DNA of 64,000 bases from positions 914,063 to 978,062 of the forward strand of contig NW_003314299.1 in assembly GCF_000143415.4 (NCBI RefSeq). Reading direction: 5' to 3'. This DNA comes from Selaginella moellendorffii (Eukaryota; Plantae; Lycopodiophyta). Positions 9,748 to 44,073 of this stretch are shown here, in pieces. Both the position numbers and the translations under genes were made by a program. Within the stretch, counting starts at the first letter, position 1, and each line of letters opens with the position of its first letter. The notes under the pieces are model-generated. The model ran no database searches. It saw nothing but the letters and a program-made list of their open reading frames with translations, and was not told the origin of the DNA.

Positions 9748-11188
9748 TGTTGGGACCCGAAAGTGCACTGAAGGTAAGCTAATTAGCATGGGTTAGCTAG
9801 GTCGACCAAACATAGGGAACTATGCACAACTCCCCATGGGGATGTCGAATCCGTAGGCGTATTCTACGGAGGTTGGGTTTGAGTCCCAACCCCCTAGTAA
9901 AGCAAGGCTAGGTTCAAGTCTTAACCCCATACTAGGGTGTGGTGGGGTGAGAAGTATAGGGACACCTATATTCCGTTGTCATGGGCTCTTGGCCAGGGAG
10001 GCTAACTTAGGCACACCGCTAAGTGGGGGGATGCCCCCGGAGACATGGTTAACAAGTCGTAAGATTAAAAAGAGACACGTTTGATGTGGGCATCGAACTT
10101 CTTCTATGGGTGGTGGAGTTGTAAGAAACCAACTCGCCGAGGTGTCGTAGGCTAAAGGATCCCCGAAAGCATGACCAAAATGACAAAGAGTTCATTAGAT
10201 GGGACCGAGTCGAAGATCGAGTCCAAGACCGACTCTGAGACCGAGTTTGAGATAGAGTTCGGGATCGAGTCTGAAACCGAGTTCGAGACAGAGTCCGAGA
10301 TCCAAATCGGGTCCGAGACCGAGTCTTAGGTCGAGTCCGAAGTTGAGTCTGAGATCGGGTCTGAGATCGAGTCTAAGATCGAGTCCGAGACCGAGTCCGA
10401 GTACTAATACGGGTCAAGGGGTGAAAGCCCAAAGCGTGCGTCTCCCGGGGGGGGGGGGGGGGGTTCCCAAAGTATACTAGGGATAGTGACGGCCAAAAAC
10501 TAGTTTTGAAGGAACTCTCCAGGGGGGCTTCCAAACTGACTTGAGGTTGAAACTGGGACCCAGGGGCCTTGGGTGGGAGTGAGCATGGACTCCGCTGGGG
10601 CTGGAGGGGCCCCCCCAGGAAGTGCTCAAGAGCCGCTCCCACTCCCGGAAGGGAAACTGACTGTGGTGCTTTCGGCTTATGGGGAGGGGGGCCCCCCTTG
10701 AGGGCTTTATGGCTCATCGGTCCTCGCTCTTCCTAGGGGCTTGGGCCTTCCCTTTGGGATGGAAGTGGGGGGGTAGAGGTACCTATACTGAGCTGTTAGG
10801 CCACGGTGTTTCACCCTGGCGTCCCGAAGTAAGTGTTGCACCCAAGACTTGGGATTTAGAGGGTCCTATGATCAAGTCTTGTGGTACCAAGGGATGTTAA
10901 GAACTTGGAAGCTTGGTGTGCTTGGCCATTTGTGCTTGCGGGGAGTGTAGCTAAACCTTAAGTTCAGTCTAACCCGGGGAGGGGGATTGGGAGAGATTTG
11001 GGAATCCGTGGATGGATGGCTAACACTCTGTTGCTCGTACAGTGAGTAGCTGAAACCAAGTAGAACCAAGTAGGAGCTGGTACCATAGGCAGGAACCTTG
11101 GCGAAGGAACTTAGCAAAAACTAAGGCAGTGTTGGACGGATAGACAAGATAAGCTAGCTAATTGAAAAGGAAAAATTTATGGCTTACA
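9748..11188 (+). repeat. 3' LTR of the chromovirus (5' boundary approximate), containing GAGTCC/GAGACC hexamer arrays at ~10200-10405
   Basis: Ends GGCTTACA, like the reverse complement of solo LTR 24102-25954. Both share the hexamer array and the GGTGAAAGCCCAAAGCG motif. Confidence 0.65.
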
Positions 11189-22743: not shown

Positions 22744-23881
22744 TGTAGTGCATGTGGTTTTGACCCTTTATCCTATGGTGATTTACCATAGGATAACACC
22801 ACAAAGAAGCACCTAAACCGTCTTTATGCCACGTGACACATGCCATGTGTCATATGCCACGTGTCCAAAGGACAGTGGAGCGGAACCCAAGGTTCAGGGC
22901 CTTGGGCCACTGAACGAAGGAATGGTGCCAAACTCTTAAGCATGGAGCCAAGGAGTGACGGAACCAGACCACAGAGCAACTCCTGAGCATACAGCCTAAG
23001 GAGCAAAGGGACAAGGGCCCAGAGTGACTTGGAACAGTCCTAGAGTAACCAGCATCCCAATGCCAAAACCAACACGCAAAACGGAGCCAAATGGAGTTTG
23101 GCGCTATTTCGGCATACCGGTGACCTAACGCGAGGACATGGGTACTCCACCAGCTAGCATGAAATGGAACTTGGACTTAGACCCAAGCCACACGCAAAAC
23201 AAGGACAAGCACGCAAGCGGGAGCTAGACTATACCTCAAGTTGGTCGGCCATGCCCGACCTACCCACTATCCCTACTATACATTTGGAACCCCCCCCCTT
23301 GAGGAACAACACGCTTTGGGTTTTCACCCCAAGCCTCCCTTAGTATCAGGAGTTAGTCTCTGGGATAAATTCGAAACTTACTAAATATGAAATGGCGCTA
23401 GATTGCGAATTTGGACATGGGATGAACACCATTGTGTTCAAGACAATCTCTACATTCCGTCTATATGCCAAATGAGAAAATTTGGATACTTTCCATAAAT
23501 AGCATTTGGGACCGAAATGAGACTAACACTAAAGGCATGATAGCGAGGGTGTTTAGCAGACACAGTAAGCTATCATCTAGCGAATATTGAAGGACGAAGC
23601 TCAATATCGCGGGGGTTCCCAAACACTAACAAGTGCAAGTCAACAATATGAGTTTCTTGTCACCGTGCCAAGTATGCTTGACTAAATGACAACGTAGGAT
23701 TTCCTTCCTTAGTGCCCTTTTGGTCTGTGCACATGTGATGACTAGTTTCTCAACTAGCTTAGGCAGAGACTGATAACGGGTTCAGCAATACCGACCTCCT
23801 GCCATCGTGGCAGTAAGGTAAGAGTGCTCGTAAGGACTAGCCAACAAGTAACTTTTGATACCCGAAGTCACATTCGCAACA
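22744..23881 (-). repeat. 3' LTR of family A copy 2 (~1.14 kb)
   Basis: TG...CA ends, adjacent PPT, closely similar to the split 5' LTR. Confidence 0.9.
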
Positions 23882-24101: not shown

Positions 24102-25954
24102 TGTAAGCGACTAATTTTTCCATTCTACTTTAGTCACTTAACCACACCTCCGACCACTTGGAGGAGTCTCATTCACAACCTCCATAAGCCCAACTCAGGA
24201 CTTGGGGCTTGCTAGCCCCGAGAATGGCATCCATGCCACTCAACCTTAGCACTTGGTCCAAGTGCTCCATGTGTCCGATCCCATGATCGACACCCCAAGG
24301 TACCACCGACATATCGGCCCGTTACGCTAAGGCCATGCCCATTTACCTCGGTCACACTGGTGGTCCAACACCACCTACATTCCAATCCCGTCTCTCAAAG
24401 ACTGGGTCATCCATCCATGAGTGATCATCCCAGATCCACTCTTTAACATCCTTAGGATGCTTACAGGCATGGGGAATAGCCTTCCCCAATATCTCTGTTC
24501 CGGTCCCCACCAAGTCCCTTTCTGTCCTTGGCTGTGTTCGCCAACACTGCCACTGGATCGAGGCCCACCAGCCCGACCACTAAGTCCCACTATCCTCTAG
24601 GACTTCCTCACTGTGTGACTGTGTCCTTGGTCACTACCCCAGAGGACTGCTCCTCTTCCTTTCCACAGTCTGGGCCTTTGGGACAACATTTCGGAACACC
24701 GTGGCCTTACGCGAGCCACCTGGGTACTCTCCTCGCCTTCTGCCCTTGGGTGCTCTAGCCATGGGCTTAGAGTGGGTTCCGTTGAGCCACACCAGGTATC
24801 CAAGTAGGTAGTGCCACCCACACTTGGACTGGGAGCATCGGCCAGTCGATCTCCCGGGGGAACTAGAGCCGGCTCTTGAACACTTCACCAAGCTACCCCG
24901 CTTGTCGGTCCGTGTTCACTCTAGTCTTGGACTTCCCAGTGGGCAGCTCATCACCCAACACTGGGTCCGGCCTTCCTGGGCCAAACTGGCCTTTCCTGGC
25001 CAAACTGGCTCCACTGCAGTCCTCCCCCTACTATACTTTTGGAGCTCACCAAACCCCCCAGGGTCTGGGAGACGAACGCTTTGGGCTTTCACCCTCTCAG
25101 ACTCGAACTCGGACTCGGACTCGGACTCGGACTCGGACTCGGACTCGGACTCGGACTCGGACTCGGGCTCGGGCTCGGTCTCGGCCTCGGCCTCGGTCTC
25201 GGTCTCGGTCCCGATCTTCGTCTCGGTCTCGGTCTCGGTCTCGGTCCCGGTCTCGGTCTCGACTTCGGACTCCATCTCGGGTCCATCTCGGACTCCATCT
25301 CGGACTCCATCTCGGACTCCATCTCGGGTCCATCTCGGGTCCATCTCGGACTCCATCTCGGACTCCATTTCGGGTCCATCTCGGATCCACCTCGGACTCC
25401 ATCTCGGACTCCATCTCGGACTCCATCTCGGGTCCATCTCGGACTCCATCTCGGGTCCATCTCGGACTCCATCTCGGGTCCATCTCGGGTCCATCTCGGA
25501 CTCCATCTCGGACTCCATTTCGGGTCCATCTTGGGTCCACCTCGGACTCCATCTCGGACTCCATCTTGGACTCCATCTCGGGTCCATCTCGGACTCCATC
25601 TTGGGTCCATCTCGGACTCCATTTCGGGTCCATCTCGAACTCTATCTCGGACTCCACCTCGGACTCTAACTCAGGTCCTTCTCGGACTCCACTTCGGACT
25701 CCAACTCGAGTCCATCTCAGACACTTCCACGTGTCATGTGTTGGTCCTTTTGGGGTCCCTTTTTGGAGCCTCGCTTTTTGCTCGCTTCGTGCTCGTTCCT
25801 CGAGCACTTCGTTGGGAGTTCCACTCCCGCTCTTGACTTTTCAAGTCGGAGCTTTTGGTCCAAACGTGTTACGCTCGTTTGGCTCTCGCTTCGGCCACTA
25901 CCATGTGGCGCCCTTCCGGCTCCACTTTGGGGCCTAGGGATTTTGTGTCTCACA
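24102..25954 (-). mobile_element. Solo LTR related to the chromovirus LTR at 9748-11188
   Basis: TGTAAG...CTCACA ends, with a perfect 5-bp TSD GCAGC (24097-24101, 25955-25959). The insertion is absent from family A copy 1 at ~53205. Confidence 0.9.
25100..25720. repeat. Tandem hexamer/dodecamer array (CTCGGA)n, (CTCGGT)n, (CTCCATCTCGGA)n inside the solo LTR
   Basis: Directly visible; produces spurious open frames on both strands. Confidence 0.95.
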
Positions 25955-30670: not shown

Positions 30671-31362
30671 TGTAGCGCACGTGGTTTTGACCCTTTATCC
30701 TATGGTGATTTACCATAGGATAACACCACGAAGCGGAACCTAAACCCTCTTTATGCCACATGACACATGCCATGTGTCATATGCCACATGTCCAAAGGAC
30801 AATGGAGCGGTTCAAGGCCTTGGGTCACTAAACAAAGGAACAGTGCCAAACTCCTAAGCATGGAGCCAAGGAGTGATGGAACCAGACCACAGAACAACTT
30901 TTAAGCATACAGCCCAAGGAGCAAAGGGACAGGGGCCTAGAGCGACTTGGAACAGTCCTAGAGTAACCAGCATCCCAATGCCAAGACCAGCATGCAAAAC
31001 GGAGCCAAATGGAGTTTGGCACTATTTCAGCATACCGGTGGCCTAACGCGAGGACATGGGTACTCCACCAGCTAGCATGGAATGGAACTTGGGCTTAGAC
31101 CCAAGCCGCACGCAAAACAAGGACAAGCACGCAAGCGGGAGCTAGACTATACCTCAAGTTAGTCGGCCATGCCCAACCTACCCACTATCCCTACTATACA
31201 TTTGGAACCCCCCACGACCTACGCCCCCCCCCCCCCCCCCCCTCTTAGGAACACATGCTCTGGGCTTTCACCCTAAGCCTCCTTTAGTATCAGGAGTTAG
31301 TCTCTGGCACAAGCTCAAAACTTATTAAATATGCAATGGTGTTAGATTGCGAATTTGGACAT
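30671..31362 (-). repeat. 5' LTR of family A copy 2, left part (interrupted by the DNA transposon)
   Basis: Matches 22744-23418 and resumes at 44074. Confidence 0.9.
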
Positions 31363-32808
31363 AAGCTCTATTTCGTTAAAGTGGGATTTATTCAGTAAAA
31401 TGGGACTAGGTACAAATTTTCAAGTATTTGAAAATGACGTGAAATTATATGTTTTTTGTCCAGGGGCTAGACATATCTGGGGCATGGTGACTAGCGCGGT
31501 GATTTTGTGTCCAGACTGAGTCCATCTGGTTGTATAATAAATCTCATTGTCAAGGTGAACATGCTGAATCTGAAGCTAAAGAAGAGCGATGGCATGCGCG
31601 CACACACTATTTGTTTATTCATTGAGCGTGTGGTGAGCTTTCCAAGATGAACATCATTCCTATTAGCCAGACATATAACTTAATGGTGAGAACATTTAGA
31701 TATTATTCAATGTTATCTTTTTCTAACGAATCTAATTGTGAAGGTGTAGCAAGAGGCATTGCTAGTCTGGAGAAGTCATTTAACTCATTTGACCCTTAGT
31801 GTATTTTCATGAAACTAAATAACATTCATATTATTTACTAAGCGCTAGTGGACACCTCCTTTTTGGTACTCTCAGCGGTACTATCATCCTTCTTCGGGTC
31901 AGTTGTTTTGCTTTGGATTGTTGTCTCTGACGTTACTGGGGCGTTCTCGATAGTTGTTAATGTTGCCGTTTGTTCAGAAAAATGATCACCTGGAGTATAG
32001 TATGGGGAGTTTGGAAGACTTATATATTCTACATCTTCACCTATCTCCTTCTCCGTCTCCTTTTCTGCCTCACTTACAGATTTTGTGCTTGCTATGAGAA
32101 CGCTCTTCACCCTAAAATATGGAGTTCATTGTGTTATAAAAGGAAACCAACACATACGCTGCAAGGGAATGATGGTACATAAAGCACGTAAACCCACAAT
32201 ATGGGTTTATGTGCCATTAATATGGGCCACACGCCATATTATTAGATTTATGCACATGTGATTGGTAAATGCATATGTCACATCATCTTTGTTTTACCTC
32301 ACACACTATATCAGGCTTAATGAACCATATCACATGTGCGCACATGCTATATATATGGAGAAGTATTATGCAAGGATAGAAAAATTCAATGCATGATTGT
32401 GGAGAGCAATGGCATGAAGCCACATGCTAAATAACATTTTAGAGAAAGAATTAAAATAAAAACATGCAAACAGTACTGAGTGGACCAAGACTTAGAAGTG
32501 CACAATTGAATGAGGTATTTCTAATAAATATTTCACTCACCTCATATAGGAATGGCTACCACTCTCAAATGGCGTATCACCTCATGCCATCACCTCGCAA
32601 TTTGTTATAACAATCCGATGAATTTATATTCGGCTTGTTCACCTTGAACTTTAAGTAAGATTTGCTAGAACAACTAAGAATTTATACTTGTTATTTGTAT
32701 CATCTCACCTAGGAATGGCGTAAGGCCACATGCCATCACGCCTCCTCTGATTCAGATTCGGATTGTTCACCTTGAAATAAAATACATTAGAAACTTAGTA
32801 AAGGAATA

Positions 32809-35634
32809 TTAATGAATCTCACCTTGAACCCGGGTTATGAATGCTCTTGCTGCATCTCTTGCATGGTCTGGCAAGGTGATGGTGGCACTTTGCTTCCGCA
32901 TCCAACTATGCACAACATTATCCACCGATATGCTCATGCTGGGATCCTTTGGATTCAGCACCCATCTCTTTTCTAGGCAATCCTTCGTATATCCGGAACT
33001 TGGCTTGAACCACTCCATAGTTACATTGAAGGAGTTAGTTTCCGCGTCCTCCTCTACATCAGTGATGCAGCGCCCCACCCATATCATTTGTTTTTTATTA
33101 CTGGGTCTGACAAGCACAACCATTCCTTTGCAGACCTATACTGGATTGAATGCTGAATCCGGCTTCTTGTTCCTCGGCCCACAATAGTGATCCTCAACAT
33201 CGTTATCTGTCATTGCATTTCCAGAGGACATTGTTCCGCTACTATCTGGTGCTCTGGGTTCTGGCCAAAAGGACTCTTCCAATTCTTCATATACAACCGG
33301 CCCATTTTGGATAGCAGATATAATCTTCTCCCAGTATTTGAGCAAAGGCTTGCACCTCTGAAAATAGGATTCTCCACCAAACACCAACCCCCTCTTCCAG
33401 AAGGCAATATGCTGTCTAATCCCGGCCACTATACTTTCCTAGTCTTTGAGTCCATCCGGGTGCATGGGCCGTGGGGAACCCTGAGGAATCATAGGTTCCC
33501 TAGTTATGGGATCTCTCTTGAAGAGTTCAATGCTGTCCACTGGCAGCCACACTGTGTCCCATTCTCTCATCTTGTACCTCATCACTGGAGCACCGTCACG
33601 CATGCTGAAATGAAACTGAAGAGGCTTGGAGTGGCCAATCAGCGTTTCGGATCCGTCCCTGATGTAGCCTCTTACAAACCCCTTAAAGTCTGGAACCTCT
33701 GTCACAAGTGCAGCTTCAACAGTGCCTTTGATGCAATTTTGGAATTCATTGTAGAGTTGTGGGAGGGTGAGGACATTAGATCGCCGGAGGGACTCTGCCA
33801 GGTGACTAAACATGGCATCGACGTCTTCATGAGTGTGCCCAACCATGAGAAAGCCAAGTGTAACCGTTTCAAATATGCCTTTGGCAACAAGCATCGCCAA
33901 GTACGCGAAGATGTACATGTTTTTGTTCTCACTGCTAGCATTGTCTGTTTGGAGCAGAAGATGGGGTGGAAGGCCACATCGGCCGCAAGAACTTCCTTGA
34001 GATTCTGCTTCGTTTGGATGAGGCTGTGCATTCACCGGGCGACTAGCCTCGTCGGAATGGCATGAGGCCTCACGTGATAACCCTACAATCTGACGGCCAA
34101 CATATTCACTGGGATGGCATGGGGCCCCACACGATACTGCAAGCCTTTGCTCCTCCTCCAGCTGAACCCTGTATGGGGTTCGATTGACAAGGGCCTTATG
34201 CAAGGGTTGGCCGTTCAGCTCAGTCTACGCACTTTGCAGAGACCTTAAGTGTTTTGCTAGGGACGCAATCATCATGTTTACACCCCTGCCACCCCATAGA
34301 GGTACAAAGAAGTTCCCATAGTTCTGGGCACCATGCCCATGAGCGATTATGCCAAACAGAGACACAGGCAGCTGCATGGATGAAGAGATTGCCTTGGGGG
34401 TAGGATTGAGTCGAGGTAAGCATGTCTTTTTCTGGTCCATTTTGTCGTGGATGATGCAGAGGTAAGAGTCAGGTCTTTCCATGGAGAGAATCCTGTTATG
34501 ATAATATGCAGTCCTGCAGCTTCTTCGCTCGATGTTGTGGTCGAGCTGCCTTCTAACCAACGTCTCTCGCTCTTGAGCGATGCAAGAATTCTTTGACAAA
34601 GCCATTTTGATAGCAGTGCACTCGTCACACTTTGAAAAGCTGGAGTACTTTCCTATACTCACATCCCTGAACCTGTTGCTCCACAATCTACTAAATCTAG
34701 ATTGGCTCAGCTTCCTGTAGCCATTACTCTGGAGTTCCCGATTCACATCTTCCAATATGGCCCCCTTGGTATACATGGAAGGGAGAACTCGTTGGGTGTC
34801 TCAAGTTCCATCTTCCAAGAGGCGGGTTTTATGTGGTTGCTGCTCGCTACATGTCTCGACAAACCTCTTGAAGATTGCCTCTCCATATATAACATGACCC
34901 CTGGTTTTGTGAGTACTATCGTTCCCATGGACTGTTTGTTGAACCCTTTGTTCCTCGAACTCAGTTTTGATTCTGTAGAATGTGGTTCGAGGGACTCCAT
35001 AAATGATTCTCCATGCCTTCATGCAGACCAAACCCCTCTGGAAGACCATGCCCCCCACCTGATGTTCTGAAGCATCAACAGATGACCGTAATGCCTCATA
35101 CACAAAATTGCGAGCTGCCTTCCAGGACAATGTCTTGTATTTTGCTCTCTCCTCTTCAATAGCATCCCAATCAGCATGTTGACAGCACCTCCTCTTGCAA
35201 CAAGCAACTGTCGAGACCATTCGAACCTCTATCGCCATTTTCTGCCTTTTCAGTTCGTTGCTCAGATCCCTTTGGCTGCACTTTAGGAAGGTGTACTTTC
35301 TTTTCCCATGAAGAGATGTTCTGTCATCAGTTGTAGTGGTGTTTGATTGTGAATCCTTCACATTCTCAAACACTAAGTGCCTCAATTTCCACCGCACAAT
35401 GCTTCCAATAGTCAGACTGTTTTCTTCTGTGTCAACAACCTCTAAAATCGCAACTCCAATATCATCCCAGCCCAATTCTTGATTAGCAACCGCATCTCTT
35501 GGATCGATAATTGTGGCTAAGCCCTCAGCTACCACCTCCCTCTCGGGGTTGTTTAGAAACACCTTTGCCTGAATCCATGTAGCACGGTTCTTAAGATCCA
35601 CGGAGGGAACATGCGTCGCACTTGCGGAGGCCAT
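32809..35634 (-). pseudogene. Sola-like DDD transposase: a single reading frame of ~940 codons with four premature stops; probably small extra 3' exons to ~31840
   Basis: ORFs 34801-35634, 34225-34776, 33439-34203, 33136-33429 and 32809-33123 are all in one frame. Motifs FSKCDEC, CIIHDKMDQKK, LQTDNASSENKN, FLMVGHTHEDVDAMFS. Confidence 0.85.
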
Positions 35635-35996
35635 TCTGAAAGTGCAGAAAAGAAGTTAAGACCATACAAAAAATGATTGGAGAATGGCCTAAATCATAAC
35701 ATACCAAACAACCTCAATAGCATGAGGCCACATGCCATTATTCAAACATGCTATTGACACCCACGTGAAATTTCGCATTCACAAAATTGGCATGAGGCCT
35801 CATGCCATCTTGATATACACACAGCTGCAGGCAAGTAAAAACATACATGACAATACGCTAGCCATGAAATTGCAAGGGCCCAAGATGGCATGTGGCCTCA
35901 TGCCATTTCTAAATGTGGTCCTAAGCCATTCCATGGTGAACATACTAGGAAGCACAAGTGCCGAATATCAAGAGGAAGCGGTAGCCACACCAAAGA

Positions 35997-36180
35997 CAGT
36001 GCCGCTCGCAACACCGCAACTACTCGTAGCGCCGCTCGCAACACCGCAACTGCTCGTAGCGCCGCTCGCACAAACTGCCACTCGCATAAACTGCCGCTCG
36101 CAATGGTGCTCGCAATGCCGCAACCGCTCGTAGTGCCGCAACCGCTCGTAGACGCATAAACCACAGCTCACAACGCCGCT
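35997..36180. repeat. ~30-bp GC-rich tandem repeats (GCCGCTCGCAACACCGCAACT.CTCGTAGC) upstream of the transposase
   Basis: Directly visible. Confidence 0.85.
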
Positions 36181-36947
36181 TACACAAGCAGCGCTCACTG
36201 TGCTCAACGGAACCAAGAACACGGCGCACAAAAATGATAGACCTAGGAATGAGTTCGAGAATTCAAAAATAACACACGCTTGAACGTCACATCAAATCCT
36301 CTGACAAACCAGATCTTATGATTCCTCTGACAAATTTCAAACTGAGTAGCTTCTAGACTTTGCTGTCGGAGGTTGAACTTTGTCACATCATGTCCTTGCC
36401 TCGATCCAGCTGTGCCATGTCAGTGATTCGAACTTTGCCATGCCATGTTAGCGATCCGCGCCAAGATTATTCGCCGTGTAAAGGAATAATTATGCTGTGT
36501 GTGTACGTCCATTTATGGCAATATAAGGCCACACGCCATTCAAAGAATAATGCTAGTCGAGCATTTTTTGGTGCATTTTTGGGTTCAAAATTGCATGAGC
36601 CCACATGCTATAAAGTTTACCTGTACCAAAAATAGAAACAGCTTTATTTACTTGGGAATTTAAGTGGTTGAGGCATTTTTAAACTTACAAACACATGCCC
36701 TACTTACATTCCTTTGGTTGCTTAAAATTCAAAAATATTATAAACCTTTCTTTTTGCATTTTCAATGTTTTCAATTATGGTTTTTGATTTTCGCAGGACC
36801 AGCCTAGTAATCTATTTGCATCCCGTCATGTTTATAGCTAACTTTCGTTTGTCCCCTTCGCTAGCCTGAGATACATCTGCTCGGCATCTGCCTCTTATAG
36901 CATTTGCCCAGAAAGGGCATCTTTCTTCACGCAGCATTTGCCACATG

Positions 36948-36973
36948 TTTAGGGTTTAGGGTTTAGGGTTTAG
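36948..36973 (+). repeat. Interstitial plant telomere repeat (TTTAGGG)3TTTAG
   Basis: Exact Arabidopsis-type telomere units. Confidence 0.9.
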
Positions 36974-38012
36974 CAATTCAGTAGCTTGATAAACATACAA
37001 ATACAGAACTTGATGCAAAATCCTTTGATATGTCACAATGCCCCTAGGACCATAAACACATTTCAATAGAGAGGGTCCTTTCATTTCATAACTCCTTACG
37101 TAGATCTTGGTGAAACCAGAGTTAGTGAAGTTGGTTTCTTGTGATCCCGCATCTAATTGTGATGTCCCTTTGCAGTGTTGATGGAAAGGTCAATGCACAC
37201 CAAATTGTAGAATCTTGGAGCAAAATAACGGTCGGATCTATGGCAAATGCCCCTGAAACATTGTAAGGCTCGTATGGTCTCATGTGGTGTCCGATCGAGA
37301 TGCTTCTTTGCAAGGTCATCAAGAAGGACATTGTATACCATTCTTTATTTAGCTGAACATCTGGCATTTTTGGAAATACAAGATGCTTTGGAATATCCAA
37401 TCATGCATGGTATAAATATAGCGAGGGTATTAAATAATATCCCAATCATGATCTTTCTTTTGGATTTCGCGTGCATGCAGTCCGAGGAATGATGACGTTG
37501 CGGATTTCTTTTGGATTTCACGTGCATGCATGCGCGCGGCGATCCAGAAATTAATGGTGGCACCCAAGTCCGAGGAATGATGACGTTGTAGGATTACCAA
37601 CCATCGTGACATTTCGCGCGTGTGAGGTTAGGTTTTGCATCGTACTCGCGCTCACACACTCGCGCTCGCATCGCGCTCCCACTCGCAATCACGCTCACAT
37701 TCGCGCTCATCTACCTTCTCTACAGGTTTCTCGTGTGCATCGGCGTCCACTCGCGCTTGCATCACACTCACGCTCGCATCGCGCTCGTGTGCATCGGCGT
37801 CCACTTCAAGACACACCCAGTTTGTAACTTCGCCGCCAACTCCGCCGCCCACTCCGCCACCCACACGCAGCCCACTTGGCGTCCCGGGAGATTTCAGCGC
37901 CACTCTCCAACTATAAGTGGCAGAGTAGCCTTGCTGCTACGATCCGCTGCACACACAGTGCACATTCGCTAGCGAGTCCGGCCTCGATTGTCACGCCTCC
38001 ATTCGGCTTCAA

Positions 38013-41000
38013 ATGGTAAGTCTTTTAGGCCAAGTAGAAAATGGCATGAGGCCACATGCCATTCAGTAGCAACATTGGCATGCACCGATTGGGCTCTCGA
38101 GTGCAGTCCGGTTACAGATGGCATGTAGCCTCACGCCATCTTAGGATGCAGCCTCAAGACATCTGATGCAGTGGTGAATGGCGTGTGGCCTCACGTTATT
38201 TCCAGCTGCTAGCTTTTCATCTGTCAGCTCTAATTGTTGTGCATTTCTGAACAGGCGAGGAATTGCGTTCTTCTTCCAGCCACTGTCAATGTGGATGCAG
38301 AGAAGGGGGAGGAGCTCACCAGTTGGACTTTCGGGATGGAAGGCGAGGATCTGATGCTGTACAACATAGATGGTGGGAGAAAAGAATGCATGGGGATCCT
38401 CATCCAAGTGACAGACACTCCATGCAGTTCCATGCAAGAATATGGACTGGCACTTGTGGTAGAGACAGCATCCACCTTCAAGATCCACCTTGCACATCCT
38501 AGCGGCTTCCCGGAGGGGGGCAGCGGCTATGAGGAATTCCTAGAGGGAGCTAGGGAGAGGTTGTCCAGGAGGCCCACAATTTCAAAGACGCTGCGGGTCT
38601 ATAAAAATCACATGGAATCCACGGACCTCACCTATGGCGATGTTCAAAAACTATATTCCAACATTGAGCCGTTGAGAGTGCCTCCAGTTCGCGAAGCGAA
38701 GGGGAAGGGGGTCGATCTGGAAACTACCCCAAAGCAGAAAACGGTGGTCAAGCTCAAGCCGACGTCCGACTCTCCTGCTCCAAAAAAGAAGCTACTCGGT
38801 GATGCCATTGCCTCGGGTTCGAATACTACACCCACCAAAAAGAAGAGCCGCAAAGAGCAGAAAGAGCAAGAAGAGGCAGCAAAAATCGTCGCAGATAATA
38901 GTACTTGTTAATATTCCAACAAAGTATATACAATCAACGTGAGTCGTATCGACATCCAAAGCAAATACAACCACAGGCTAGTATCTGATGAGTGGGTGGA
39001 GAAACTGAAGCAGAAGATGCTGGCAAGTCCAGTAACACCCGACATCGCAGACATGATCCCCTACTACTGAACAATGAAGGGCAAGACGAGGTTTCCAGAC
39101 TTGATCAATAGGAAGGTGTTGGACGATCAGAACATCCGGTTCTATGCCGTCTCCGGGCAGCATTCTAGCTTGGCGATGCAACAGATAGTTGTGGATATTA
39201 TGGTGGGCGAGGAGGTGAAGAAAGTCTTCAAGACAAGAGTTGTCCACATGATAAAAGGCAACTCGCCCCTCAGATCTATCATATACATCTCCCACGCGCA
39301 GAATGTCAAGCAAGAAACGTGCTACAAATCGGGTCTGCATGAGACATTGGCACGAACAAGGAAGCTCTGGGTTCAACTGAAGAAGCCACAAAAACCAGGA
39401 CAAGGACGTGCACTAGCAACTAGCGCCTGGCAGGTAAGCCTCGTTGCATGTGGCATAGCATGTGGCCTCATGCCATTTCCATTGCAGGAATTCTCGAGTC
39501 TTCTCTCGAAAACACTGGGGGTCAATGACACACTCAGCATCCATAACATTCTACTCGCGACAAAAGTTGTTTTTGACAAATGGGTAGATGTGCTGAGGAG
39601 GTACCATGACGGGGAGTTGCTAAACTCAATGGGTGTGGAGGACGGCCGGAAGCCCAATGATTTGAAGCTCAATGCCTTGCGTTTCTCGCGGTCTCTAGAC
39701 GACGACGACCTTCTGACAGTGGCTAATGCTCTTCTACGTGGTGAGGTAGTCTTCAACAAGACCAAAATGACTCCTGGCCATATTGTGACATACAAGGACT
39801 TGTGCACGACTCTGAGAGCTCGTGCGCTATTGAAGGATTGGATCTTCGAGCAAGTGGCCGTGGAGAGGGTGAGCATCGACACCACGCAAGAGATGATGGA
39901 AGAGCTGGACTTGTCAAATGAAGACATCGACGAGTACGTGAAGGGGGCCCCCAAGTTCATCGATCTGCTGCGGGATGCCACGAAAAGTAAAGCTGAGAAG
40001 TTGGATCAGTATCCAAATTTCATTAAGAGGGATGTCGACCGCCGGCTTCAGAAACAGCTCGACCCCGCAGTAGAGGCCTATCGAGAACCTTACCGGGTAT
40101 ACGTGAATTCGGATGAGGATCAAAGGTGGAGGAGCATCGTTTCCCGCGGAGATGAGCAGGTCAAAAACATCTTTTGTGTGATGGACTCCACAAACAAGGA
40201 GATCACTCATGCAGACGAAGTCAGCTCCATCATTGACTTAATGGTGGGACTTGCGGAGGTGGAATCTTCAGTCCACTATATGATCTACGACTCCGAATCC
40301 TATCACAAGTTCTGGAAGGCCTTGAACGAGGTGATGGCTCAGTTGAAAGGCAAGGAGATGCGGGAGATCCATGGGATAATGGCTAAGAAGAAGATACCGA
40401 CGAATGTCCGCATCTTCACACTCGCCCTTGTTATTGGTCCTGTAGCAGAGTGGGACTGGAGTGACTTCCCAGCTTCGTTCGACAAGGCCGATCGAATTGA
40501 TCTGAGGGAGGTCAATTTACCCGTGCCTGAGGAACTGAAGACGGCTATGGAGCTTTCGAATCCAGAGAAAGCTCTAGGTGCAGCATGGGAAATGCTCAGC
40601 TGGGTCTTCAACACAATAGCGGGTGGGTCACCTGCTTCCGACTCCAAGGGCAAATGCGTTGTTGAGTACAATTGCGACGGACTATTCTTTCGAGCCGCAC
40701 TACTCAAGGGTGTCCCGTGTGTTGCGGTGACAAACTCCATTGAAGAGGTGACTTCAATGGAGCATATAATTACAGTTGCCAAAGAAAAACAGTATCTTCT
40801 CTGCGAACCTGGTGAGTACGCACTTTAAGTTTAAATGTTATCTCACAAGCTCTATATGCAGGAGTGTGGCCACCCCCAGATGCTGAAACGGCGTTAATAG
40901 CTACTGTTGAAGATACCCATGTTGGGCCGAGCTCACAATCTGCACAAGGTAAGGTCACGTGAGGCCTCACGCCATTTTGATTATAGATCGTTGTGAATAT

Positions 41001-43627
41001 TCAGACACGAGGACTGAAAAGCGCACTGGTGGCGCGTCGAAGAAGGACAAATAGACAAGCAATAGGAAAAAAGGAGGTACAAATTATATTTGCAATGGCG
41101 TGTGGTCTCATGCCATTCTTTGCAGGAGACACTTCTTCAAAGGCAAAACAGGCAAGCACCAGCCAAGCTCAAACTGACAGTGGTCATAAAAAGCGAAAGC
41201 ACGTTGGACAGTCGTCGGGATCAGAGGCGTTTGATTCGAAAAGGAAGAAGGGCAACGAAAAGATGAGAGGTAATGCCTCGCGGTTATGGCGTGTGTGCTC
41301 ATGCCATTCATTGCAGATCAAGGGCTGAGTGAAAGCAGCCAGTCACCACCTCCTGACTCAGATTCCTATGGCGGACTCCCCTTCCCCAATCTCAATGGAG
41401 AGGTACAATGGATAAGGGATGCTTTTCAAGTTAGGGCCACGTTTTTCTCATCTCGTCGTCTTCGAAGGGTGCAAGAACGTGCAGAAACCATGTTAAGACA
41501 GTCGGGTGAGGATACGGTCCTAGGTCACGCACTAAAACAGGCTATGGATGTCTTGTATTTTGAGATGGAGACTCAGCCAGATGATTTTCCCAAGATGGTC
41601 CTGGAAGAACAAGCCATCCAGCCTGAGCAGCCTATGGAAGAAATGCAGGAGAGGGATGAGGAGCCAGAGAAAGATAATGAGCAAGAAGAGCAGAAGGACG
41701 AAGAGGAGGACGAAGAAGAGGAGGACGAAGAGGACTTGGATGGTCCTCACAATGGTGACAATCACAATAACGACGACGACGATGATGACGACGATGGCCA
41801 GCCTGAGGTGGCCAAAGAGCAGCGGAGGAAGGTCATACAAGACAAACCATCAAGTAAATAATAGTACATCCATTCCTAACCTTTTACCATTTCTAACATT
41901 GTCCATGTAGGTCGCAGAGCAAATGGTAAGTAGAGATTATTCAGTTGAATTAAGATACAAACTCTAGCCTTTAGTGTCGAGGAAGGATAGTGCCAAGCAA
42001 GGGTCGAAACGTATGTCCAATCCTTCAGAATCAGCAGTGCGCCCAAGTGATATCGGTCCTAGTTCCTCAATAGCAGTTGATGGTAAATACAGTATAGTCG
42101 ATTCAATGTGCTAATGAGTTTGTTTTTAGTAGCCAGTAGGGAGGATACCATCTCAATCGAAGGGAAATATTTGGACATGCATATGGATCCGCCAGTGGAC
42201 TCTACTTGCCTGCAAGAGTCATCAGAGCTGGTGGAGGCTACTATCCATATCAACGCCAAGCAAGCTGACCACGCTCCACTTGATGCTGCCCATACCACTG
42301 AGTCAATCTTGTCCACGTATCCAACTGACGGTGACCAGGCGCCATTGGACCCACATGAGGCCGCCCCAGCCGCCAAGCCGGTCGAATCCTCATTTCCAAC
42401 GGACTCAACGTGTGCCCAATCGTCTGACTACGCGCCGTTGGAACCTCCCTACACCGCCCCTGCTGCCTGTTCGGTCATGTCCACTTTGCCAACGGAGGCA
42501 CCAGCTGAAATGGCATGTGATCACACACCATCGGAACCACCCCATGCCACTATTGAGCCAGTTGTACCAGAGTCTACAGCTGACATGGCATGTGCCCACA
42601 CGCCATCGGATGCGATTGACCCCACATTGCAGAGGAGAGTATTTCCGCCCTTCACGTTTCCTCGACCAAAACCCTCTCAACGACCATCGGGAGCACCATT
42701 CGCTAATATTGTAGATGGTAAAATTGACTTGTACCATTTTTTATGCTAACGCATTTCATTTCAGAGTCACGGCGAAGGTACTGTATCGTTTTTTATCTGA
42801 ACGGTGTCTTTTTCTCCCATGAGCGTGGCTCGTCCTCGAATGTCACTGCACCCTCCAAAGCCTGCGGTCGCAAGTTGGTCAAAAGAGACAGATTCACATT
42901 AATCACACAGGAGAAACTGCGGGATCTAATAATGACCATACGACACTTAAAACAGAAGGCCGGGTTCAATTTGCAATTGGGAGTTTGGACATCCATGATG
43001 CGCCACAATGCATTAACGTTGCTACAGATGATGCACGATCAGACGCGAGTAATATTACCATTTGACTTTCTCCTAACGCAGGAGGATTGCTTGACTATGG
43101 TCCATGTGAGGGGTAGCAAGCCCATCTTTGTCAAGCCAGAGGCTGTAGTGATGAACCGGACTGCTAGGTCAAGTGAAATCCTCATCATCAATGACTCGCC
43201 GATTAAAACTGCAGCGAACACGCACACATATGCAGTGCACCCCATCTCTTGCAGTATGGAAACTAGGGAGAAGAAACTGTATGTTCTGGGGGACCTTGCA
43301 AAACAGCTTGGAGCGATGGTGATAGAGAACCGGCCAGTCCAGGAGGTGGCTGCAGAAATCAACCAAATGGCAGATGGAACGGTATATTAGAAGCCATTTG
43401 ATCGGACAGACACCAGTCATCATTTATGGCATGTATATTGTCTAGCCAAGCACTATCCACATCTCCATAATCTACTCAACCGGATGGGTTCTTCGACCAC
43501 TGAACATGAGCGTGGACGTATTAGAGAAGAGATGGCATTACTATTGGGTTTAAATCCTGATAGTGTGGAGAGTGATGAAATTTCAAGATTATTGTATAGG
43601 CATTGGAGGCAAAAAATAACAGTCTGA
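38013..43627 (+). pseudogene. Multi-exon accessory gene(s): ParB/Srx-like domain, degenerate N6/N4-methyltransferase-like fold, acidic linker, FCP1/NIF-like HAD phosphatase domain
   Basis: ATG|GTAAG at 38013, intron to 38254. ORFs 38234 and 39074 are in frame across two stops. Introns at 39434-39487, 40812-40861, 40949-41004, 41077-41125, 41270-41316 and 42718-42764. Motifs INVSRIDI..HRLVSDEWVEKLKQKM..FYAVSGQHS; NPEK..MLSWVF..GKCVVEY..AALLKG..VAV; IVFYLNG..GVWTS..LIINDSPIK. Whether this is one gene or two is uncertain. Confidence 0.7.
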
Positions 43628-44073
43628 GATGGCATGTATTTATTTAAAAATGTAACTTATTATGGCATGGGGTTCAATGCCATTGTATTAATATTAAAAG
43701 ACAATTCTTTGAGAGGATTTGCATTATACTAGAAGTGTTACAGCATGTTATTGGAAGTCTACGAAATTGTTTTATTAATAAGGGGAAAGTAAAGATTGAA
43801 TGGGGACTTGGGCTCCACCTAGACTCGGAGCAACTGAGCCAATATTAAAAGGATGGAAAGAAATTGGACGACAATGACAAGGAGAAGAGAGAGGTGAAGC
43901 AGTGGCAGGGGGAGGAGAAGTGATTGAGTAGACATTTCCTTGTTTAAAATAAAATGGCATGTGCCTCAATGCAGTTGAATTTTGTTATATTTATATACTA
44001 TATAAAGGTTTGGAAACCTTATTTTACAAGTGGGATAATGACAATTCCCACTTTAACGAAATAGAGCTTACAT

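Follow-up and report, generated by a model that had tools for sequence, protein, structure and literature searches.

Why should a single DNA transposon carry more than twenty copies of one palindromic word, dispersed through its introns, leaders and spacers and absent from the DNA around it? The question is raised by a 64,000-nucleotide stretch of the Selaginella moellendorffii genome (contig NW_003314299.1, positions 914,063 to 978,062 of the forward strand; hereafter the window), in which a Sola-type transposon with two divergent genes, a transposase (gene 1) and a long accessory gene (gene 2), holds 23 such sites. It is probable that these sites are bound by a dimeric protein predicted to be encoded by the element itself. 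The main new result is that related Sola-type loci carry family-specific words of one design.

All 23 copies listed by the first-pass annotation, about 20 main ones and three weaker ones, are present where it had placed them. A degenerate consensus allowing at most three mismatches gives 17 matches, compared with none in 100 shuffles, and the exact consensus occurs in only two copies (35885 and 38041). The window was further scanned with a position weight matrix (PWM) trained on the 20 main copies and hence circular for those; at a cut-off of at least 12 bits it returns 23 sites in the element (31589-43975) and none across the remaining 51 kb. Order-4 Markov simulations of the element yield a mean of 0.42 sites and a maximum of 2, and a blind search of the window for repeated palindromes recovers 15 copies inside the element and at most three per flank. 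The mean identity among the copies amounts to 0.74 in the motif, as against 0.29 in the 22-nt flanks. Outside the window, the exact motif is found nowhere in the metagenome contigs searched, while the loose motif occurs in prokaryotic genomes as a single site at 79 of 80 loci among the matches listed, a chance-like pattern. The word spans 22 bp and consists of two 8-bp arms around a 6-bp core, and A/A or T/T prevails at the outer positions of this core. The earlier description as a 22-bp palindrome therefore applies to the arms but not to the core, where positions 9 and 14 are complementary in just 8 of the 23 copies (A/A in 6, T/T in 7); the core is a quasi-palindrome.

The copies are dispersed over 12 kb rather than gathered at the ends of the element, none lies in the terminal inverted repeats, and no half-site of the word was found there. 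Coding DNA is avoided, with 4 coding copies among the 23 versus an expected 60% (p = 4e-5), which agrees with their initial placement mostly in introns and spacers. Nine sites fall within gene 2, seven in its predicted introns and two in its Pro/Thr linker; three occupy what is probably a leader intron of gene 1, two lie in the transposase's variable insert, two in the intergenic spacer, and seven are situated 3' of the genes. The copy at 32715 shares 2 nt with the transposase stop codon, and the putative intron in the 5' untranslated region (UTR) is based on an acceptor-like site that precedes the transposase ATG, together with a candidate donor. The four short introns with one copy each and the first intron with three, as originally read, fit the predicted model of gene 2, in which exons 1-9 run for 1,156 codons with three stops and the last two exons for 480 codons with one; no copy is present in 6 of the 10 short introns predicted (47-57 nt). 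The exonic copies had all been assigned to low-complexity linkers, which is true of 42510 and 42585, located in a Pro/Thr-rich 75-bp duplication, and not of 34057 and 34114, which lie in a transposase insert of variable length that is not of low complexity. A further copy, split or broken by an insertion and absent from the original list, lies at 32209-32237, and sister-subfamily contigs connect two palindromes at 35808-35907 via another short palindrome (loose ends).

Equivalent words recur in related loci. The relatives are the best 80 of 249 confirmed metagenome loci, fetched with the transposase alignment (55 non-redundant), and a blind search reveals repeated palindromes of 20-24 bp in many of them. 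Fourteen PWMs were built from seed loci, which count circularly; of the 34 non-redundant loci that have 1 kb or more of upstream sequence, 29 hold at least three sites of the family word, only 5 of 246 sites lie within the transposase span, and motif identity exceeds flank identity in all 14 seed loci. In a quick tree of 56 rows from 47 of the 80 loci, about nine distinct words, alike in length and symmetry, fall into separate clades of the transposase; 16 rows of this tree belong to one clade, two chosen loci were dropped as too short, and the window branch is long and unsurely placed. The 14 foreign PWMs give one match in the 64-kb window, and the window PWM gives single weak matches in 3 of the 80 loci and no multi-copy match. 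Words that change between transposase clades are as expected of co-evolving protein-site pairs; since kin share words by descent, the tree itself demonstrates turnover of words between clades and not co-evolution. Two features of individual loci may be added. In L001, eleven palindromes stand 5' of the transposase (524-1852) with a spacing of about 140 bp and diverged spacers. In L074 (5900-7200), L076 (200-1400) and L029 (5400-6700), a conserved, decayed, coding-like stretch extends beyond the motif cluster; it has no family match, and a resemblance of the gene 2 N-terminus to it was rejected as not significant.

The word is also constant in other copies of the element. The three copies tested (40954, 41095, 41286) show no difference of at least 2% across the family in any of four DNA-type runs, so that the conservation on which the first-pass annotation had staked its reading of a selected site is found in all three. 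Extra copies occur elsewhere in sister subfamilies (loose ends). Regarding the proposed origin of the sequence variants by CpG deamination, 31 of the 46 half-sites are of TpG type and 15 of CpG type, in line with the proposal; however, both types are fixed across the family in the three tested copies (2% sensitivity), and only site 34131 differs, with G in most family copies and A in the window copy. The TpG half-sites are consequently, for the most part, tolerated states of the family rather than decay of the window copy. The master lineage may plausibly have undergone deamination long ago. A sensitivity to methylation, which the first-pass annotation had considered possible, might also act in the opposite direction, since the binder may be indifferent to the methyl group at the TpG/CpG half-sites, or may favor it.

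The boundaries of the element are defined by 27-bp terminal inverted repeats with one mismatch and by self-comparison of the window, where the host repeat is interrupted at 31362/44070. Unsplit empty-site paralogues near 23415, 17055 and 53680 all contain a single ACAT, and DNA contigs skip 12,711 bases with four letters fitting both sides, in agreement with a 12,707-bp insertion and a 4-bp duplication. A 4-bp target duplication, terminal inverted repeats and a DDD-type transposase, all three of them present here, are the features by which we take the element to belong to Sola, and DUF7869 is likewise presumed to denote this superfamily. The Sola1 subgroup prefers AWWT targets, with which the ACAT of this one insertion is at odds. 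The family is very abundant, with 58,110 and 155,909 contigs in two DNA runs of one sample, figures that reflect depth and not copy number. The window copy departs from the family majority mainly by C-to-T and G-to-A changes, and the observed/expected CpG ratio of the element is 0.68. Three tested stops (34227, 33441 and 41052) are sense codons in other copies, which indicates that the gene model of the family is sound and the window copy dead. The element is thus a dead copy of a high-copy, land-plant-type Sola-type family with two divergent genes.

Gene 1 matches Pfam DUF7869 with E 5e-42 and contains four in-frame stops in the window copy. Its ten homologues share 28-38% identity with it, save one that is near-identical, and their alignment displays the conserved acidic motifs HDKMD, QxDN and GHTHExxD. 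A PF26133-labelled domain resembling the transposase N-terminus is present in four of the ten, and one exhibits a weak TNP1/EN/SPM match. On the minus strand at 31838-32125, a 95-codon open frame rich in Ser, Thr and Glu follows an acceptor-like site and might serve the transposase gene as an alternative 3' exon; a sister subfamily diverges at 31838 and carries a palindrome there.

Gene 2 combines a ParB-like stretch recognized by eye, a helical domain, a degenerate N6/N4-methyltransferase-like domain, acidic and Pro/Thr linkers, and a weak tail of NIF/FCP1-like phosphatase fold (42765-43387, E 0.018). Besides its four stops, the window copy has a 1-base insertion near 42134. The 54-nt intron at 39434-39487 is independently backed by a gap of 16-18 residues in two homologues. 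One run that may be of RNA, or else of DNA, yields unspliced contigs and speaks neither for nor against splicing, and depth peaks above introns in run X2 carry no weight, as parts cannot be ranked by contig depth. A full profile search gives five matches, four of them plausible at 19-28% identity; P0031, a repeat protein, was dropped as spurious, and word-index protein searches found no relatives. The homologue P0034 matches the N6/N4-methylase family PF01555 with E 2e-4, below the cutoff, and the predicted structure of P0030 resembles N6/N4-methylase clusters at TM scores of 0.36-0.41, with one of ten rows reaching the bar for naming and four of ten also labelled ParB or helix-turn-helix (HTH). 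In the window protein, the S-adenosylmethionine (SAM)-binding-like motif is degenerate, motif I aligns weakly, and the catalytic (D/N/S)PP(Y/F/W) motif is absent from the 852-residue read-through. For these two reasons, the missing catalytic motif and the degenerate SAM-binding-like motif, the methyltransferase domain is likely inactive. The ParB-like start is represented by the motif FYAVSGQHS, common to P0034, in a part of low model confidence. The structural models reach a predicted local distance difference test (pLDDT) value of 32 from the single sequence and 50 from a five-row alignment; the helical middle is confidently predicted. Fold searches with these models, the helical middle included, give no clear match, PDB sequence searches return nothing relevant, residues 1-180 of P0034 give no usable match, and Pfam scans detect no similarity to VANC. 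The stretch 42717-42861 is matched at 80% by run contigs some 2.1 kb long, which perhaps represent another family. The coordinates of the element, its genes and the sites are collected in Table 1.

Table 1. Positions in the window of the transposon, its ends, its two genes and the palindrome copies (start positions in parentheses)
Feature	Position	Strand	Remarks
Left target-site duplication	31359..31362	+	ACAT
Whole DNA transposon	31363..44069	.	12,707 bp, within a long terminal repeat (LTR)-retroelement-like repeat
Left terminal inverted repeat	31363..31389	+	27 bp, begins AAG, no palindrome copy
Palindrome, weak	31589..31610	.	19.7 bits; 226 bp from left end
Four palindromes (32329, 32409, 32569, 32715)	32329..32736	.	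3' of transposase
Gene 1, Sola-type transposase (DUF7869)	32735..35634	-	predicted exons 35634-32823, 32770-32735
Two palindromes (34057, 34114)	34057..34135	.	variable insert of transposase coding sequence
Three palindromes (35717, 35787, 35885)	35717..35906	.	just 5' of transposase start, likely 5'-UTR intron
Two palindromes (36518, 36590)	36518..36611	.	spacer of divergent genes
Gene 2	38013..43627	+	predicted 11 exons, ~1,640 amino acids; opposite strand to transposase
Three palindromes (38041, 38118, 38178)	38041..38199	.	predicted gene 2 intron 1 (38016-38254)
Palindrome	39455..39476	.	54-nt predicted intron 39434-39487
Three palindromes (40954, 41095, 41286)	40954..41307	.	predicted introns 40949-41004, 41077-41125, 41270-41316
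Two palindromes (42510, 42585)	42510..42606	.	Pro/Thr-rich gene 2 exon
Two palindromes (43662, 43954)	43662..43975	.	3' of gene 2; last one 94 bp from right end
Right terminal inverted repeat	44043..44069	-	similar to right end of family L006/L011/L013/L016
Right target-site duplication	44070..44073	+	ACAT

Collectively, the restriction of the word to the element, its avoidance of coding DNA, the constancy of the three tested copies and the equivalent words of the relatives suggest a selected site for a predicted dimeric protein, as had initially been proposed. With a probability of about 0.5, this protein would be the ParB-like product of gene 2, serving the self-recognition of family copies and counteracting their silencing. 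A dimer of the gene 2 protein would bind the palindromes as bacterial ParB binds parS, binding would mark the copies of its own family, and the marked copies would be kept or turned on against host silencing, in the manner of VANDAL/VANC. Because the methylase domain looks inactive, the protein may act by occupying DNA or by recruiting host factors rather than by methylating. Gene 2 is favored because proteins of the ParB type recognize inverted repeats in dimeric form, because inverted-repeat arrays adjoin ParB genes in an unrelated transposon superfamily, and because known transposase/TnpA sites cluster at ends.

Three explanations dispense with an element-encoded binder. If the copies were RNA hairpins tuning splicing or transcript stability, the alternative raised by the first-pass annotation, one could understand why 7 copies are found among the 11 predicted coding-region introns, why three of them stop 9-11 nt short of the 3' splice site, and why the folding energy of the best copies reaches -10 to -12 kcal/mol. 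Several copies, however, attain no more than -1 to -4 kcal/mol on the sense strand, the short introns without a copy are in the majority, and copies also occur in the intergenic spacer and in coding DNA. Compensatory changes, the check suggested for a hairpin, are not seen: complementary pairs equal the expectation from independent arms at pairs 1-10 (6/17: 12 vs 12.7; 9/14: 8 vs 9.0), and the sole excess over independence (16 vs 12) is at the central pair, whose two positions are unable to pair in a hairpin. An Rfam scan for structured RNA gives no match either. The lack of compensatory changes, the barely folding copies and the absence of an Rfam match favor conservation of sequence, acting on DNA, and make the hairpin very unlikely; the three copies close to the 3' splice site likely reflect a duplicated intron-exon unit, and a sister subfamily holds a further such palindrome intron. 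That the copies are neutral by-products of local duplication, of intron-exon units or short tandem repeats, is the least likely of the explanations considered. Some copies do lie in duplicated units (32569/32715, 42510/42585 and the three similar introns), and in several relatives the word is found inside tandem repeats; nevertheless, the motif is far better conserved than its flanks both in the window and in every seed relative, and the copies are scattered in unrelated contexts. Capture of host transcription factor sites for germline expression is likewise very unlikely. Clusters flank both predicted promoters, and transposons often carry host factor sites (10.64898/2026.08.24.746577), but about nine unrelated words of equal length and symmetry are a better fit to an element-encoded binder, and the 51 kb of neighboring DNA contains no site.

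The most serious competitor, doubtful as it is, is the transposase itself, which might bind the palindromes via a domain that does not read the ends, and thereby regulate its own gene or help to join the ends. It is the only gene seen in all motif-bearing loci, palindrome clusters of the window, L009 and L032 lie within or close to its 5' leader, the words track its tree, and its N-terminus has the PF26133-like and TNP1/EN/SPM resemblances described above. Several further observations weigh against gene 2 as the source of the binder. No gene 2 was detected in the 80 related loci, the majority of which bear palindromes, in a search made insensitive by fast divergence and by the many short, decayed or truncated loci; L032, a 7.1-kb element-like locus with long inverted arms and no visible target duplication, has motifs and transposase and no second long open reading frame, so that the transposase stays a serious candidate. 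The ParB call depends on a by-eye motif and on the cluster labels of weak structure matches of a homologue, and no profile, fold or PDB-sequence match to a ParB domain was obtained for the window protein. In addition, the PWM counts in the relatives are partly circular and 16 tree rows stem from one clade, and the AtMu1 transposase is reported to activate cognate copies (10.64898/2026.08.24.746577). Against the transposase stand the terminal repeats without a half-site and the published transposase/TnpA sites, which concentrate at ends as the window palindromes do not. Furthermore, gene 2 could easily be missed in the related loci, its best relatives being 20-28% identical and many of the contigs being short or truncated, and L074, L076 and L029 do possess a further conserved stretch past the motif cluster. 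L009 was considered as a transposase-only test case and proved unfit, its left part being replaced by unrelated DNA.

Comparison with known systems places the gene 2 reading among several precedents. In Ectocarpus, Sola1-1_Ec32 carries a gene with ParB-like and N4C/N6A methyltransferase domains opposite the transposase strand, proposed to bind and modify its own element (PMC12477816). The window element shares with it the Sola-type transposase and the accessory gene on the opposite strand; unlike it, the window element is land-plant-type, measures 12.7 kb and has 23 mapped sites, and its gene 2 is longer and devoid of the methylase catalytic motif. The string 'palindrom' has no occurrence in the main text of PMC12477816, and the supplements might describe repeats in Sola1-1_Ec32; no description of palindromes in Sola elements was found in the literature consulted, with the same proviso on those supplements. 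In Bostrychia, inverted-repeat arrays beside a ParB-like accessory gene of Plavaka elements (PAG3) are proposed binding sites (10.1101/2025.02.11.637652). There, the transposase belongs to another superfamily, ParB is fused to a 2-oxoglutarate (2OG) oxygenase and the arrays are tandem and adjoin the gene, whereas the window palindromes are scattered over the introns, leaders and linkers of the two genes. Both the two-gene layout, in Ectocarpus, and arrays of inverted repeats next to ParB genes, in Bostrychia, have thus already been published. For VANDAL elements of Arabidopsis, family-specific motifs lie in introns, spacers and terminal non-coding DNA, and binding and demethylation by VANC have been shown experimentally (PMC5735166). 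The window family resembles them in the spread of family-specific motifs over the non-coding DNA of the whole element and in words that differ between families. VANDAL elements, by contrast, are of the Mutator superfamily with 8-9-bp non-palindromic motifs in tandem repeats, and the window element, with its DUF7869 transposase and 4-bp target duplication, is not Mutator-type. Spm TnpA and the AtMu1 transposase are element-encoded proteins that recognize clustered motifs specific to their family and activate cognate copies (10.64898/2026.08.24.746577), yet their motifs, unlike the window palindromes, measure about 10 bp and concentrate at the termini. Other eukaryotic amino-methylases (PMC4738411 and a Marchantia preprint) do not, in the parts available, match the window setting, and PMC5751038 is relevant here only for the distribution of Sola.

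These features suggest that Sola elements, using long palindromes and possibly bacterial components, evolved anew the sequence-specific self-recognition demonstrated for Mutator and Spm in Arabidopsis. In view of the great abundance of the family in its genome, such a system could help to explain its expansion. Orthogonal pairs of a protein and its 22-bp site could also serve targeted epigenome tools.

Bacterial ParB acts as a dimer on repeated inverted-repeat parS sites, with loading and spreading that depend on cytidine triphosphate (CTP), and has a ParA partner. The window element resembles this system in its repeated inverted-repeat sites and putative dimer, and has no visible ParA partner. 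A bolder and, as a whole, unlikely extension is that the Sola transposons of plants possess a eukaryotic version of parS/ParB, in which a dimeric dead-methylase clamp would load at the dispersed 22-bp sites, spread over the element to shield or reawaken it, read TpG and methyl-CpG alike, and so find silenced, deaminating copies. If this were true, each family would evolve its own word, and the families would form a natural library of orthogonal protein-site pairs.

The remaining observations concern the spacer and the surroundings of the element. Four telomere-type TTTAGGG repeats are located at 36947-36972 in the intergenic spacer, and L032 and L074 contain comparable runs. CpG-rich short tandem repeats at 35998-36190 and 37640-37800, both likely transcription starts, are mirror-placed about the spacer. 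The rest of the window is filled by several nested LTR-like elements, and GC-rich tandem repeats at 10207-10482 and 25026-25722 are common to two host repeats in inverted orientation.

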